Positions 25,225-34,747 of a stretch of 43,895 bases of DNA are shown in pieces. Source of the stretch: a virus (lineage: Duplodnaviria > Heunggongvirae > Uroviricota > Caudoviricetes); the IMG/VR virus record IMGVR_UViG_2548876954_000009; one strand, given 5' to 3'. The stretch's first letter is position 1, and every line of letters starts with the position of its first letter. The translations under genes were made by a program, and so were the position numbers. Under the pieces are notes generated by a model, which was not told where the DNA came from, made no database searches, and was given only the letters and a program-made list of their open reading frames with translations.

Positions 25225-25662
25225 TTATTTCAGGCATTGCGTCCTGATGTACTCCTGCAGGTAGTTAACCTGCGCGGTTATCCTGTCGATTCCACTTCGG
25301 AGACGGTAATAATTGAGTTCAGCATCTGCTGTAAGTCTTGGGCTTTCTCCATCGCCCATGCTGCTGGCTCCGGTCGTTGACTTTGCACAGGTGGCGGTGA
25401 CTTGCAGGCGCTTACGCCCAGCAGAAACATCAGCACGTAGACTTTCGATAGTCGCGTTAGCATCAGCAAGCTCCTTTGTGTATCTGGCATCGAGTTCTGC
25501 TACATCACGTTGACGCTTCTGCATGTCAGCGATGATGTACGTGGCTTTATCGCGCTGTTCTTTATAGGTAATGGCGTTATCACGGTAATGATTAACAGCC
25601 CATGACAGACAGACGATGATGCAGATAACCAGAGCGGAGATAATCGCGATTAATCTGTTCAT
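25225..25662 (-). CDS. Rz: i-spanin Rz
   Basis: [34 protein letters not shown]... lambda Rz-like TM anchor plus coiled coil; ATG overlaps endolysin stop (ATGA). Confidence 0.9.
25278..25463 (-). CDS. Rz1: o-spanin Rz1 (lipoprotein) embedded in +1 frame within Rz
   Basis: Signal peptide with lipobox LLGVSAC followed by Pro-rich mature region [14 protein letters not shown]; fully nested in Rz. Confidence 0.75.
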
Positions 25663-26156
25663 TGCTGCCCCCACAAACAGACTTCACGCTCAATCTCACG
25701 ACGAGTCATCAGGCCTTTCCATTGCTTACCGCCAGCGTATGTCCAGCGACGTAGTTGGTCACATGCGCCTTTGATATCCCCCTGGTTTATTTTGCGAAGA
25801 AGCGTCGATGTTCTGAAATTGCCAGCACCCACGTTGTAAACGAACGAGTAAAGAGCGCCGCGCGTTGTTTCCGGTATATCGACTTTAATGTACGGGTTAA
25901 TTTGTCTGGCGACCGTGGCAAGGTCTTTATTCAGGAGGGCTTTGCATTCTGCTTCGGTATACGTTTTACCGAGCATAATGTCTTTTCCGGTGTGCCCGTA
26001 ACATACAGTCCATACGCCAACGATATCTTTATATGGTATGTAGCTGACACCTTCCAGACCATCGTCACCACTCGGACCAGTGATGAGCACAGACGCTATG
26101 GCAACAGCCCCACCACCAATAGCAGCTGCAACAGCCTTGCGTAATGATGGCGACAT
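25659..26156 (-). CDS. R: SAR endolysin (phage 21 R-type lysozyme)
   Basis: N-terminal SAR domain [21 protein letters not shown]; catalytic-region sequence very close to recalled P21 R. Confidence 0.95.
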
Positions 26157-26371
26157 TATTCACCTCTCGCAGCCTTACGCTTATCTTCTTTAATCTTGAA
26201 ATAAAGGTTTGTCAGGTACGTCAGCAAGCCAAATACCAAGCTCCCCAGCACACCAATTGCAGCCCACTGTGACGGAGTTACTTTATCGAGTAACTGCAGT
26301 GCCCAGAAGCCGGCATTACCTGCCGATGTGCCATAGGCGACACCTGTTGTTAACTTATCCATTGATTTCAT
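26156..26371 (-). CDS. S: Pinholin S21 with dual start (antiholin S71 / holin S68)
   Basis: MKSMDK... dual start at Met1 and Met4, two TM segments, charged C-terminus; GGTGAGG RBS. Confidence 0.95.
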
Positions 26372-26592
26372 ATCCTCACCCCGATGTACACGGATGGTGC
26401 AATATGTTTGAAAAGATCGGAGTCTACGGGTTAGTTTTTACAGCAAACGTTGTTCTCAACGACGCTCAAAAAATAGAAGCTTAAAATAATGCGGTTAAAT
26501 ATTTTAAAAGAAAAACCATCTATTAAATAATAATGCGGGATATATTTTTCTATTTAGTGTACTATATACGGCTATTTATACAGGAAAAGCCT

Positions 26593-26763
26593 ATGTCAGA
26601 ACGTAAAAACTCAAAATCACGCCGTAATTATCTCGTTAAATGTTCCTGCCCAAACTGCACCCAAGAGTCAGAACACAGTTTTTCAAGAGTACAAAAAGGT
26701 GCCCTTTTGATCTGCCCTCATTGCAACAAAGTATTCCAGACAAATCTTAAAGCTGTAGCCTGA
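26593..26763 (+). CDS. YdfK/YnaE-family small zinc-ribbon protein (cold-shock associated moron)
   Basis: MSERKNSKSRRNYLVKCSCPNCTQESEHSFSRVQKGALLICPHCNKVF...; CxxC...CxxC; ATG 26593 with AGGA RBS. Confidence 0.65.
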   Translation: MSERKNSKSRRNYLVKCSCPNCTQESEHSFSRVQKGALLICPHCNKVFQTNLKAVA

Positions 26764-26811
26764 TTGATTTTATTAATTGCAAGTGTTTTTATATTTTATA
26801 AATCAGATAAT

Positions 26812-26834
26812 AAAAAACCCGCCTGAGCGGGTTT
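26812..26834 (-). terminator. Hairpin terminator (minus-strand T-tract) between ydfK-like and cspB-like genes
   Basis: Stem ACCCGC/GCGGGT with loop CTGA, flanked by A6 on plus strand. Confidence 0.4.
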
Positions 26835-27115
26835 GATATTGTGGTGCTTTTTGTGGGAGTCATCCACTTACGCACTTTGTTTTTCTATACCAGCAGTTAG
26901 CTTCTGCTGTAAAACTATTCATGCAGCAAACCTGCACTTCACCACGATGGTTAGCATACTTTTCCTGATTAAGATCTTGCCAAATATGCTTGCCATTATT
27001 TCATGCATTGAACATCCTTACTTTTTATTAAAGATATCCAATATTCGCCACTCTGTCTGTATCTCCACTCAGGCATCAGCCTTCTTCGTTATCGTATACA
27101 GACGAGCTATGAATT

Positions 27116-27331
27116 TTAATCAGTAATAATGACATTTGCTGCTGCAGGACCTTTAGCACCACTCTCTATAGAGAAGATAACCTTTTGACCTTCAAATAAG
27201 GTTCGATAATTATCATTCTGAATTGCAGAAAAATGCACAAACACATCTTTACTACCATCAACAGGAGAAATAAAGCCAAAACCTTTATCAGCGTTAAACC
27301 ATTTTACTAAACCAGTCATTTTATTTGACAT
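27116..27331 (-). CDS. cspB: Cold shock protein, CspB/CspI-like
   Basis: [23 protein letters not shown]... with RNP motifs; 71 aa. Confidence 0.9.
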
Positions 27332-27631
27332 TCTACATTCCTTAACTTGAGCCTTTCGGCATAAATGATTTGTATAACAGAAACGACTTCGTACTTAATT
27401 GGAGAGACTCAAAGAAGGAATAAGTGAATAACACCTGAAATGAGAACTGCTTTAGTAAACTACTTCGTATATCGTCTGTTCTTCAAACCGACGCAATCAT
27501 TAACGCATAGTTGAACATATGAAGCAATGTTTATTTTAGACATCCAGCCATCTTCAACCCCATCAAAAAACTATAGCTTTCTTCAGGAAGGTGTGTATAG
27601 TGCGCCCAGTTATCAGTATTAAGGAATTTTT

Positions 27632-27844
27632 TTGTCCCGTAAAATGACAGGAATTGTCAAAACCTTTGACGGCAAAAGCGGCAAGGGTCTTATCACCCCA
27701 TCCGATGGTCGTATCGATGTCCAGCTTCATGTTTCAGCGCTCAATCTCCGCGATGCAGAAGAAATTGCCACCGGATTACGCGTGGAATTTTGCCGGATAA
27801 ATGGTCTGCGTGGCCCTTCAGCTGCCAATGTTTACCTTTCATGA
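27632..27844 (+). CDS. cspF: Cold shock-like protein, CspF/CspH-like (TTG start in ORF track)
   Basis: [26 protein letters not shown]...[13 protein letters not shown]; 70 aa. Confidence 0.8.
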
Positions 27845-27898
27845 GCTATATTAAAGCTTTAATTTCAGACCCCATCGAATCAAACATGGAGAGTTTTC

Positions 27899-27988
27899 AT
27901 GAATAACCCCGTCTGTCTTGATGACTGGTTGATTGGCTTTAAAAGCTTATGCTGTACTTTGACCGTAATAGCTCTGCTAATAATGTAA
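27899..27988 (+). CDS. Small hydrophobic ORF (29 aa) with strong RBS, unknown function
   Basis: GGAGAG 6 nt upstream of ATG; [29 protein letters not shown]. Confidence 0.3.
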
Positions 27989-28130
27989 TAAGCAGACTCA
28001 TTGTATCTAGGGACATTGTACTGGAAGAAAACATTTTAAACATCAGGCAGAAAACAAAGTCACCCGATAAATAATAAGTAAACAAACATGAATCCCGAAA
28101 TGAGATTCAACATCTCTATTACCCTATTTA

Positions 28131-28158
28131 AAGCACAAAAACCCGCTCATCAGCGGGT
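28131..28158 (-). terminator. Putative tR' terminator of the Q-dependent late transcript
   Basis: Stem ACCCGC/GCGGGT, 6-nt loop, T-tract on minus strand, about 50 nt downstream of predicted PR' start. Confidence 0.55.
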
Positions 28159-28206
28159 TTTCTACTTTTTCTTAACGTCGGGTATACAAAGCCCATCGTT
28201 GAAAAA

Positions 28207-28235
28207 ATTTTATCCATATTTTTTGAAAAATGCAA
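28207..28235 (-). promoter_or_regulatory. Putative late promoter PR' (TTGCAT-N17-TAAAAT) immediately downstream of Q
   Basis: Minus-strand -35 TTGCAT (28235..28230), 17-nt spacer, -10 TAAAAT (28212..28207). Confidence 0.5.
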
Positions 28236-28266: not shown

Positions 28267-29019
28267 TTATCTCGTCACTTTTCTTAATTGCACCTCAGCA
28301 TATGCTTCTTCCTGCCAGCACTTTGTAACCAGTTTATCAATGACATCTGCATATCCTTTGTACCACTGATAATCCGTCAGGTCTGGTACCAGCTTCTTGA
28401 CATGAAGCCGCGCCAGTGTGGTTGGTAAACGGCTAAACCGGTTTCCATTGCAACGCCCACAAATCTTATAAACAGGCGTGCCATGAAGCCGGGTTCTTTT
28501 TTCATCCAGGACAATACCTTTACCCTTACACCCTCTGCACGCTGTGCTGACTTCTCCCTTACCATGACAATACTGACATAGTTCCTTCACCCACTCTTCC
28601 TTGATAACAGACTCCCCGCTTCTGGAGTGTTTCACCACTTCGCGCAATACATTATGAAATCCAGTACCAGAACAACGCTCACAGCGAGCCTTACTTGCCG
28701 CAGACCTGGAATAATCAGCAAAGGCAAAATTCACAAGGTAAGGAATGATCTGTAGCCGGGTTTCTTCACTCAATTTATTCAATGTCGGGTTATCCAGTGC
28801 CATCGCGTAATTGAGCAGACCTTCAATCGCAAACTGAGGATCCTGAACACCAACTTTTGCCAGGAATAAGGCAAACCCAAGCGGTGCTTTCGACTGCACC
28901 ATCCCCTGCGCAGCCATTACATCCGTAATTGTTAAACCACCAGAGCCTGTCGCCGGTGCGTCATCGCTCAATTTTGGAGATTTTGGGGAGTAATATTTTG
29001 GTAAGGCTTCAAGGTTCAT
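28267..29019 (-). CDS. Q: Late gene antiterminator Q (QuuQ-like)
   Basis: 250 aa with multiple CxxC zinc-finger pairs (CERCSGTG, CQYCHGKG, CRGCKGKG, CGRCNGNR); upstream of lysis cassette. Confidence 0.8.
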   Translation of the reverse strand: MNLEALPKYYSPKSPKLSDDAPATGSGGLTITDVMAAQGMVQSKAPLGFALFLAKVGVQDPQFAIEGLLNYAMALDNPTLNKLSEETRLQIIPYLVNFAFADYSRSAASKARCERCSGTGFHNVLREVVKHSRSGESVIKEEWVKELCQYCHGKGEVSTACRGCKGKGIVLDEKRTRLHGTPVYKICGRCNGNRFSRLPTTLARLHVKKLVPDLTDYQWYKGYADVIDKLVTKCWQEEAYAEVQLRKVTR

Positions 29020-33918: not shown

Positions 33919-34747
33919 GACGATGCCCTCCGCGGATATTCAGGAGACGGTGAATATGAAAATTAGCCTTATCCGCCAGACGAATACGTTCAGCTTGCAA
34001 GTTAAGAAGGGTTTCTACCAGAACCTGATGCGCCTGCGGATCCGAAAGAGTTACCTTGCGCAGAGCACGTAGTGCAGTCGTTACATAACTGAGTTTATGT
34101 AAGTCTTCATCATTCAGACGAGTGAGGGCTGGGACAGTAGCCATGATGGCAGCCTCCTTGATCGGTGAAATACTTCCACCACCGGAAACGCCAATTTCGC
34201 TGGTGGTGAACTGAACGGGGTTGGCGTAACCGGTGATCAAGGAAACCGGCGCATCTTTCGATGCCCCCGCCCAGCCCACCATAACTTTGATGTGAGCAAA
34301 TGCGGACGATAAAAAAGACGCTGGCGCGTCATATATCGCCTTGATCAATTCCAGGACGCCAATCCCGGCACCCGCTTTATAAGGTGCCTGAACAGTGTAA
34401 CGTCCCGGAATGGCAGAATCAATGTGCTGGTGGTCCTTCACACTCAACAAAATCACGCCTGAATTTCCACAAAGGACTAAAGCACTCATGCGGGTAGTCT
34501 TTGCGAAGATAGATAACGCGCTGTGTTTCTGGCTCCCAACGAATAACATGAACATAAAGTCCTCTTCCGTCACGAAACCAGCGGTTAAGTTCCTGCACAA
34601 CTCGCCCCCCACAGTCAGGTAAAGTTCTCTGTGGTTACTTACAGCCAGGTGATTTGGTAATCTGCATTCATGCCGTAACAACAGGTGTTCAGCGACGCTG
34701 ACCACCAGCTGTTGCGACAAACGGTTATTTGCCGTTAAACTGTTCAT
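33911..34747 (-). CDS. Hypothetical protein (278 aa) in early-right operon
   Basis: ATG overlaps upstream stop (ATGA); no recognisable motif, no Walker A. Confidence 0.4.
   Translation of the reverse strand: MNSLTANNRLSQQLVVSVAEHLLLRHECRLPNHLAVSNHRELYLTVGGELCRNLTAGFVTEEDFMFMLFVGSQKHSALSIFAKTTRMSALVLCGNSGVILLSVKDHQHIDSAIPGRYTVQAPYKAGAGIGVLELIKAIYDAPASFLSSAFAHIKVMVGWAGASKDAPVSLITGYANPVQFTTSEIGVSGGGSISPIKEAAIMATVPALTRLNDEDLHKLSYVTTALRALRKVTLSDPQAHQVLVETLLNLQAERIRLADKANFHIHRLLNIRGGHRHA

Follow-up and report, generated by a model that had tools for sequence, protein, structure and literature searches.

A Qin-type ynfU-cspB-cspF-ynfS cassette between the late antiterminator and lysis genes of a lambdoid prophage

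The Qin prophage of E. coli K-12 carries the gene string essQ-ynfU-cspB-cspF-ynfS-ydfT(quuQ) (b1556-b1559, b4776, b4750); hokD sits 3 kb away in the same prophage. The smallest of these genes, ynfS, belongs to a described family of 29-aa proteins (Pfam PF23697; VanOrsdel et al. 2018, Weaver et al. 2019). The K-12 protein has been seen by immunoblot of a chromosomally SPA-tagged form, which was present in exponential as well as stationary cultures in LB (PMC6001520), and ribosome profiling gave strong retapamulin and Onc112 peaks at its start codon (bioRxiv 10.1101/511675). We analysed a window of 43,895 nucleotides (IMG/VR virus record IMGVR_UViG_2548876954_000009) in which positions 26593-27988 form a four-gene cassette with the same genes, order and strands as in Qin: ynfU (+), cspB (-), cspF (+) and ynfS (+), the last in the same synteny as the described family. 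Q (28267-29019, -) flanks the cassette on one side, and the P21-type holin, lysozyme and Rz genes (26371 down to 25225, -) lie on the other. Our overall reading, to which we give a probability of roughly 0.85, is that this is a Qin-type cassette in a phage cargo slot, that YnfS is a known small protein which inserts in the membrane, that cspF and ynfS form an operon and that no type I toxin is involved. The features on which the analysis rests are as follows.

26156..26371, - strand: holin S, class II (P21-type); Pfam Phage_holin_2_1, E 6.7e-34
26593..26763, + strand: ynfU, 56-aa zinc-ribbon protein with two CxxC pairs; Pfam YnfU PF23499, E 3.5e-31
26834-26815, - strand: cspB intrinsic terminator, GC-rich hairpin; scan, 8-bp stem with 5 GC pairs
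27074..27492, - strand: cspA-type thermoregulator mRNA element; Rfam RF01766, 157.3 bits against a gathering score of 78
27116..27331, - strand: cspB, canonical CspA-family cold-shock protein; Pfam CSD, E 4.8e-31
27632..27844, + strand: cspF, atypical CSD protein with a TTG start and AAGGA before it; Pfam CSD, E 6.9e-22
27888..27893, + strand: ynfS Shine-Dalgarno sequence GGAGAG, read from the sequence; ATG 5 nt downstream
27899..27988, + strand: ynfS, 29-aa small protein; Pfam YnfS PF23697, E 1e-21
28138..28161, both strands: bidirectional intrinsic terminator, tR' on the - strand; scan on the + strand, 10-bp stem
28207..28235, - strand: putative late promoter pR', TTGCAT and TAAAAT with a 17-nt spacer, found by eye
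28267..29019, - strand: late antiterminator Q, phage 82 / Qin type; Pfam Antiterm PF03589, E 7.7e-54

The cassette and the late control region

The ynfU/cspB/cspF/ynfS cassette is well-known cargo of Qin-like lambdoid E. coli prophages, in which it occupies the interval from Q to the lysis genes. Neither the genes nor their order nor the small protein is new, all of them being in the K-12 reference annotation and in Pfam already. The DNA of the cassette is ~96% identical to that of the best-matching E. coli genomes. At its left border lies the holin gene, the first of the lysis genes, whose product is 98.6% identical to K-12 EssQ; Q is 93% identical to K-12 YdfT. The two prophages nevertheless differ in state, Qin being a decayed remnant, whereas the lambdoid prophage in the window seems complete and has a SAR-endolysin cassette of the P21 type. 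The window also carries another DUF968 allele, 57% identical to K-12 YdfU.

The right border of the slot is the hairpin at 28138-28161, which is followed by CTACTTTTTC on the + strand and by TTTTTGTGCTTT on the - strand. It would end the cspF-ynfS transcript in one direction, and it serves as tR' in the other. The homology of SfV and mEp460 to this region starts exactly at the hairpin (query position 1738), and the SfV record has a terminator annotated at the same place. The putative pR' follows the Q stop codon at a distance of 30-60 nt; its assignment is tentative because the site did not reach the threshold of the consensus scan. SfV and mEp460 have the same Q-pR'-tR' arrangement but carry orf47 and a DNA methyltransferase gene in the slot. 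The cassette occupies the cargo ('moron') slot of this lambdoid prophage, with tR' on one side and the holin gene on the other, as it does in Qin. In the lytic cycle, polymerase modified by Q would pass tR', run antisense over ynfS and cspF and then reach the lysis genes. We count two of the four cargo genes as opposed to the direction of late transcription.

The cassette is found in other surroundings as well. In Citrobacter sp. FP75 it adjoins an unrelated, lambda-type Q, and in C. braakii it lies in a non-phage chromosomal context, between an FMN reductase and a GmrSD nuclease.

ynfU and the cold-shock genes

The first gene of the cassette had been labelled YdfK-like in the sequence-only reading. 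Its product is YnfU, identical to the K-12 protein in 56/56 residues and also matching NCBIfam NF038384 (zinc_YnfU_fam), and it is without similarity to YdfK: BLASTP of YdfK (b1544) against the product of 26593-26763 returned no alignment at E <= 100. The consensus scan placed a weak promoter-like site near the gene, at 26503-26531.

The presence of CspB- and CspF-type genes with signals of their own between Q and the lysis genes, as described earlier, was borne out. CspB is 98.6% identical to its K-12 counterpart, and in the alignment its RNP1 (KGFGFI) and RNP2 (VFVHF) motifs are intact. The RF01766 match on the same strand spans the full model (1-428) and covers the cspB 5' UTR (27332-27492) as well as the coding region. 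At the other end, TTTATTATCT comes after the stem of the terminator hairpin and forms a T-run on the - strand. With a thermosensing 5' UTR and its own terminator, cspB would be a self-contained, cold-inducible unit on the late strand.

CspF, which is 97% identical to the K-12 protein and matches NCBIfam CspF with 159 bits against a cut-off of 111, is an atypical member of the CSD family because the aromatic residues of RNP1 and RNP2 are replaced (SGKGLI and VQLHV); the alignment showed the same in K-12 CspF and CspH. No cspA-type UTR was matched by Rfam on the + strand at cspF, and therefore cold induction of cspF-ynfS is not implied. The consensus scan returned no promoter for cspF itself. 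Membership of the cassette in a defence system was considered and rejected, as only generic CSD hits below threshold came up.

YnfS and its conservation

The 29-codon ORF at the end of the cassette is genuine and already on record: it is the small protein gene ynfS. The Pfam match scores 76.7 bits against a cut-off of 27 and covers residues 1-29 of 29, and 27/29 residues (93%) are identical to K-12 b4750, the two differences, A22T and I29M, both being C-terminal. MG1655 and NZ_CP099752 share the position of the gene between cspF and Q, on the cspF strand. The identical YnfS sequence occurs on at least 1000 public contigs, under the UniRef name 'Protein YnfS', and is also in NCBI; ynfS DNA was found in 1410/5426 complete E. 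coli genomes. An annotated CDS lies beneath the match in 12/12 cases among the matches listed, PGAP has the gene as a 'hypothetical protein' CDS in all the related genomes of the listing, and it annotates a CDS in each complete E. coli genome checked. The sequence-only reading was therefore right about the ORF at 27899..27988 and its GGAGAG, and wrong to call it unannotated, as it is ynfS b4750 in MG1655 and a PGAP CDS elsewhere. Taken as a whole, that reading is confirmed in part: the ORF coordinates, ribosome-binding site and hydrophobicity stand, and the YdfK label and 'unannotated' fall.

By itself a 29-codon ORF is not beyond chance, because the ORF list for 5 kb of this DNA has 88 entries of 20 aa or more. 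The significance of ynfS comes from homology and conservation, and not from its length. The 14-mer GGAGAGTTTTCATG at its start occurs once in the window. The protein has a polar N-terminus of ~10 residues followed by a hydrophobic segment that runs to the C-terminus, with a mean Kyte-Doolittle value of 2.19 over residues 11-29 (1.5-2.5 in the 9 representative variants examined). A gene for a small hydrophobic peptide with a strong Shine-Dalgarno sequence is thus indeed present after cspF. The translation suggested for it has been found for the K-12 orthologue by the tagging and profiling studies cited above (PMC6001520; bioRxiv 10.1101/511675); for the copy in the window itself, the conserved Shine-Dalgarno sequence and constraint at the protein level support translation.

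In Citrobacter spp., loci chosen by cspF alone carry a 29-codon ORF with a GGAGAG Shine-Dalgarno sequence in the same place after cspF, at 48-52% protein identity. GGAGAG is kept in all E. coli and Citrobacter homologues, while the remaining cspF-ynfS spacer mostly is not, and homology between E. coli and Citrobacter ends right after the ynfS stop codon. The 9 representative variants examined all keep the ynfS frame open, which is true of none of the other five frames. Between the clades, synonymous sites are near saturation (pS 0.57-0.94) and the flanking DNA is unalignable; the uncorrected pN/pS is 0.26-0.67. We applied the observed number of differences at random in 100,000 trials; the ORF stayed intact, with identity and tail hydrophobicity both equal to or above the observed values, in 53, 13 and 0 of them (at most ~5e-4). 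Among 80 loci selected through cspF, the 29-codon ORF was intact in 79 and interrupted by a premature stop in 1; in L027 and L028 the gene was lost by deletion. The constraint is nonetheless weak, because YnfS diverges far faster than its neighbours, with 48% identity between genera against 82-88% for YnfU, CspB and CspF. Because the DNA pattern used to gather part of the homologue set prescribes residues 9-16, conservation of that motif looks inflated. Adjacency and co-inheritance are with cspF-type and not cspH-type genes, and ynfS is missing downstream of cspH and cspF homologues in many other Enterobacteriaceae. A search for a paralogue after chromosomal cspH found none, and this candidate was dropped, as were two ORFs overlapping ynfS, 27939-28085 (-) and 27949-28074 (+), both of which are interrupted in Citrobacter.

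As a discovery the locus is of small significance, translation of ynfS being experimentally known in K-12. What the analysis adds is the correction of the YnfU/YdfK mislabel, the finding that a type I toxin reading is unsupported, and the protein-level constraint on YnfS and its co-inheritance with cspF, both within prophages and away from them, in Escherichia and Citrobacter. YnfS is now a slightly better candidate for functional study alongside CspF.

Role of YnfS and comparison with known systems

The sequence fits the small membrane protein proposed earlier: YnfS most likely has a C-terminal membrane anchor, and its gene is most likely transcribed together with cspF. The 54-nt spacer between cspF and ynfS is without a terminator, and the scan found none on the + strand from cspF until 28138; the two genes would form a two-gene operon on the strand opposite cspB. 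In the lysogen, ynfS may be translated from its own strong Shine-Dalgarno sequence independently of prophage induction, and residues ~11-29 would insert in the inner membrane, leaving the short N-terminus in the cytoplasm or periplasm. The hydrophobic stretch contains the invariant Lys15 and Ser16 and is not flanked by positive charges, so it would be a marginal transmembrane segment. The conserved D9, G13, S16 and T20 share one helix face, which suggests packing between helices; the YnfS helix may pack against a second copy of YnfS or a larger membrane protein, in the manner of other characterised small proteins of bacteria. Membrane insertion, topology, partner and co-transcription with cspF are all predictions. 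A more specific proposal, that cspF-ynfS is a functional module, within a four-gene cassette that travels between chromosomes and lambdoid phages whose Q proteins are unrelated, and pairs a CSD protein lacking the nucleic-acid-binding aromatics with a 29-aa membrane anchor or modulator, YnfS tethering or regulating CspF or a host membrane protein, is speculative and rather unlikely. Strict adjacency, co-inheritance and protein-level constraint are what speaks for it; if it were true, candidate roles would be cold or envelope adaptation, or exclusion of other phages. Several other assignments were rejected. A partnership with the P21-type pinholin is at odds with Citrobacter prophages and the C. 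braakii locus, which have ynfS without that holin. A lipoprotein or signal peptide would need features that are absent: the conserved Cys18 is not preceded by a lipobox, and the N-region lacks positive charge. For a hairpin sequestering the Shine-Dalgarno sequence, or an RNA thermometer, the candidate anti-SD in codons 5-7 is not conserved in L010 and L029 (by eye); the fold z-score of the ynfS start region is only -1.95.

The gene might instead be a chance ORF in the cspF 3' UTR that is translated pervasively into a peptide without function. That its function is uncharacterised, with a place in the 2024 y-ome, its 48% identity between genera, its occasional deletion or truncation and its absence after the cspH/cspF homologues of many other Enterobacteriaceae would all be expected of such an ORF, yet length, start, stop, Shine-Dalgarno sequence and hydrophobicity have been kept despite the near-saturated synonymous sites (pS 0.57-0.94) and unalignable flanks. 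Random mutation rarely yields this outcome (at most ~5e-4), and only the ynfS frame stays open in all 9 representative variants examined, which makes the account unlikely. It is very unlikely that ynfS has a role in cis in which the act of translation, and not the peptide, tunes cspF mRNA stability or termination at tR'. A short ORF with a strong, conserved Shine-Dalgarno sequence between cspF and the terminator that the late promoter also uses would suit such a role, but in E. coli 150 nt separate the stop codon from the terminator downstream of it, both the distance and the sequence to the next hairpin are wholly different in Citrobacter, and identity and hydrophobicity are conserved beyond the needs of mere translation.

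The suggestion that the peptide might be a type I toxin, which would depolarise the membrane and be silenced by an antisense or overlapping small RNA, draws on its small size and hydrophobic C-terminal segment, on its prophage location and on the late transcript from pR', which would be antisense to ynfS if it continued past tR'. Such transcripts, however, have to pass first tR' (28161-28138) and then a second hairpin (28109-28089) to reach ynfS. The consensus scan, which may miss a weak promoter, found no promoter-like site on the - strand in 27880-28137, Rfam gave no sRNA on either strand at ynfS, and no conserved antitoxin gene is visible, because the ynfS flanks differ between clades and cannot be aligned between E. 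coli and Citrobacter. The Pfam scan matched only YnfS and not Hok, Ldr, Ibs, TisB or other toxin families, and NCBIfam, PHROGs and PADLOC returned nothing linking YnfS to a toxin family. Type I toxins are normally kept untranslated. K-12 YnfS, in contrast, is translated and accumulates in LB in exponential and stationary phase (PMC6001520; bioRxiv 10.1101/511675). The gene is also the second after cspF and not a stand-alone locus. A full-text search of the relevant papers naming YnfS turned up no report of an overexpression assay for growth arrest or membrane damage. The toxin idea finds no support in an antitoxin RNA signal or in family similarity, and constitutive translation in K-12 speaks against it; we regard it as very unlikely, and YnfS is probably not a type I toxin.

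Compared with known small proteins, YnfS resembles Hok, Ldr, Ibs, TisB, ShoB and DinQ in size, hydrophobicity and location in a prophage or island, and it differs from them in having no antitoxin RNA signal and no sequence similarity, in being constitutively translated and in being the apparent second gene of an operon. AcrZ, MgtS, MgrB and proteins of the SgrT type are characterised small membrane proteins of E. coli with a single helix, regulators of larger membrane proteins. YnfS is like them in having fewer than 50 aa, one predicted hydrophobic helix, its own Shine-Dalgarno sequence and a place beside a larger gene, and in that its character is conserved more than its sequence; unlike in these proteins, its hydrophobic segment reaches the C-terminus and includes the invariant Lys-Ser. 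As for the cassette, Stx phages carry stx as cargo in the slot from tR' to S. The ynfU-cspB-cspF-ynfS cassette, like stx and the cargo of SfV and mEp460, uses an insertion slot directly downstream of tR', and it differs from them in that it also exists outside prophages, in C. braakii.

The ynfU-cspB-cspF-ynfS cassette and its neighbours

Four small genes lie between the lysis genes and Q, and the coordinates proposed for all four from sequence alone were exact.

Features between Rz and Q: coordinates, strand, feature (basis)
25225-25674, minus, Rz (Pfam scan)
25659-26156, minus, lysozyme (Pfam scan)
26156-26371, minus, P21-type holin (Pfam scan)
26593-26763, plus, ynfU, 56 aa (ORF list and sequence)
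26834-26815, minus, terminator of the cspB side (terminator scan)
27074-27492, minus, cspA thermoregulator of cspB (Rfam RF01766, 157 bits, full-length match)
27116-27331, minus, cspB, 71 aa (ORF list and sequence)
27632-27844, plus, cspF, 70 aa, TTG start preceded by AAGGA
27899-27988, plus, ynfS, 29 aa, GGAGAG upstream with a 5-nt spacer
28138-28161, both, strong hairpin, putative late terminator tR' (plus strand, terminator scan; minus strand, T-rich tract after the hairpin)
28235-28207, minus, candidate late promoter pR', TTGCAT-17-TAAAAT (read by eye; below the promoter scan threshold)
28267-29019, minus, antiterminator Q (Pfam Antiterm, E 7.7e-54)

Pfam assigned the product of 26593-26763 to YnfU (E 3.5e-31), those of 27116-27331 and 27632-27844 to CSD (E 4.8e-31 and 6.9e-22) and the 29-aa product, over its full length, to YnfS (PF23697, E 1e-21); the NCBIfam names are YnfU-family zinc-binding protein, CspA/CspG-type protein and CspF. 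The Qin prophage of E. coli K-12 MG1655 has the identical arrangement, essQ - ynfU - cspB - cspF - ynfS (b4750) - ydfT, with identities of 56/56 residues for YnfU, 98.6% for CspB, 97% for CspF, 27/29 for YnfS and 93% for Q. The cassette is also present in the isolated temperate phages 2H10, PhiR42_1, PhiR63_1 and HannyBb. DNA matching ynfS was found in 1410 of 5426 complete E. coli genomes, with an annotated CDS beneath it in 12/12 among the matches listed, and the exact window peptide, named 'Protein YnfS' in UniRef, occurs on at least 1000 public contigs. YnfS and the cassette are already known objects, and none of them is new. The sequence-only reading was accurate except for two labels. 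The gene at 26593-26763, called YdfK-like, is ynfU, and BLASTP of its 56-aa protein against K-12 YdfK gave no match; the 29-codon ORF, called unannotated, is annotated in MG1655 and is a CDS with the same peptide in the closest complete genome, NZ_CP099752 (96.5% over a 1.9-kb region). CspB and, weakly, CspF matched the PADLOC CSD_V and NCBIfam retron Se72 effector models below their cut-offs; the similarity is generic to cold-shock domains and gives no evidence of a defence role.

By size and order, the long minus-strand ORFs listed in the remainder of the window are what one would expect of structural genes in a complete lambdoid prophage. There is a single copy of the 14-mer GGAGAGTTTTCATG in the window. 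The endolysin (25659-26156, minus) has a hydrophobic, Gly/Ala-rich N-terminus and adjoins the P21-type class II holin; the lysis cassette is predicted to be of the pinholin/SAR-endolysin type, and its endolysin differs from the K-12 Qin lysozyme, with only 33% identity. In the early region, adjacent matches above the Rfam gathering score to C4 antisense RNA (34199-34286, minus, 82 bits) and the Hfq-binding RNA isrK (34311-34387, minus, 64 bits) look like a P1/P7-type C4/IsrK-like antisense control module in a lambdoid phage.

Expression and conservation of YnfS

In K-12, SPA-tagged YnfS expressed from the MG1655 chromosome, with cspF/ydfT given as flanking genes, was detected by immunoblot in LB cultures, and ynfS gave a signal in tetracycline-arrested ribosome profiling (VanOrsdel et al. 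2018, PMC6001520). With retapamulin and Onc112, YnfS 'has strong start peaks' (Weaver et al. 2019, bioRxiv 10.1101/511675); according to the same study, the YnfU of prophage Qin is a zinc-knuckle protein. The ribosome profiling or translational fusion proposed for the 29-aa ORF has therefore already been done, with a positive result, for the K-12 orthologue. A full-text search for 'YnfS' found no functional study, and a 2024 y-ome survey places it among uncharacterised proteins (PMC11551758).

Related loci were retrieved by CspF alone, one genome per species. Citrobacter sp. FP75, C. braakii and C. pasteurii each have a 29-codon ORF behind GGAGAG, 63-68 nt past the cspF stop, encoding peptides 48-52% identical to window YnfS; a 29-codon ORF also lies beside a truncated cspF in C. 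meridianamericanus. Among the retrieved loci, ynfS was absent at chromosomal cspH-type loci and beside cspF homologues of several other genera. A DNA pattern scan of viral contigs added further alleles and brought the total to 124 intact copies with 17 distinct DNA sequences; every one has 29 codons. In the aligned representatives the cspF 3' end, SD, start codon and ORF are conserved, the spacer is mostly divergent and no alignable sequence follows the ynfS stop codon.

These comparisons indicate a protein-level constraint that is real but weak. Of the six frames, that of ynfS alone is uninterrupted in each of the 9 representative variants examined, and 79/80 viral contigs chosen via CspF carry an intact ORF (1/80 has a premature stop). 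Uncorrected pN/pS is 0.26-0.67, or 0.41-0.67 without the eight codons fixed by the search pattern, with synonymous sites near saturation between genera. In simulations of random mutation that matched the observed difference counts, the ORF stayed intact, with identity and tail hydrophobicity no lower than those seen, in 53, 13 and 0 of 100,000 trials. Between genera YnfS is 48% identical, against 82-88% for YnfU, CspB and CspF.

Losses were also seen. In E. ruysiae (L027/L028, 3001-3300) a deletion removes ynfS, joining the 3' end of a frameshifted cspF to the tR' region. The same E. coli-like DNA is found under the labels Veillonella parvula (L028) and Mucilaginibacter (L018) in MAGs, which looks like binning contamination. 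In C. meridianamericanus (L029, 1907-2589) a deletion truncates cspB and cspF while ynfU and ynfS are kept; the ynfS tail there is less hydrophobic (TTLSVI), possibly a sign of decay.

Membrane protein or type I toxin

The classical Kyte-Doolittle threshold for membrane helices is 1.6, and YnfS residues 11-29 lie at or above it (mean 2.19 in the window allele; 1.5-2.5 in the 9 representative variants examined). L7, D9, W10, L11, G13, K15, S16, C18, T20 and L26 are invariant, that of residues 9-16 being partly forced by the search pattern, and a helical-wheel calculation places D9, G13, S16 and T20 within ~60 degrees on an alpha-helix. From this hydropathy and clustering we favour YnfS as a small inner-membrane protein that would be anchored C-terminally and have either itself or a larger membrane protein as its packing partner.

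The ORF had been likened to small membrane proteins or type I toxins. Its small size and hydrophobicity hold, and they are the only features that fit a toxin, a reading we consider very improbable. The consensus promoter scan found no promoter-like site on the strand opposite ynfS, Rfam gave no match to a known sRNA family there, and the flanks are unconserved between clades. Two terminators separate pR' from ynfS, YnfS resembles no toxin family or defence model in Pfam, NCBIfam, PHROGs or PADLOC, and the K-12 orthologue is expressed constitutively (PMC6001520; 10.1101/511675).

Transcription and the cargo slot

The Rfam scan found no cspA-type UTR at cspF. Because the terminator scan found no plus-strand terminator between cspF and the 28138-28161 hairpin, we infer a bicistronic cspF-ynfS transcript, from which YnfS would be made in the lysogen. 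The hairpin is probably tR', because a T-rich tract follows it on the minus strand and it lies ~45 nt downstream of the plausible late promoter. Q-modified transcription would run antisense over ynfS and cspF, sense over cspB and antisense over ynfU.

The cassette is a unit that is not bound to a single phage. In FP75 (L007, 1914-4072) it occupies the Q-to-lysis slot between lysozyme and a lambda-type Q (PF06530, 152 aa) unrelated to that of the window, and the FP75 holin has no tblastn match to the P21-type S. In C. braakii ATCC 51113 (L009, 1924-3365) the whole cassette has an FMN reductase on one side and a GmrSD-type restriction nuclease on the other, and no phage gene lies within 3 kb. 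YnfS is therefore unlikely to serve the holin or Q of this prophage as a cofactor, and the non-phage setting suggests that the phage cargo came from a chromosomal island or was exchanged with one.

In SfV and mEp460, homology to the window is confined to the hairpin through Q, and between tR' and S these phages have a small ORF and a DNA methyltransferase instead of the window's cassette. Because their cargo there is different, the tR'-S interval is a cargo-swap slot, which makes 'inserted in the late operon leader' a fair description of these genes.
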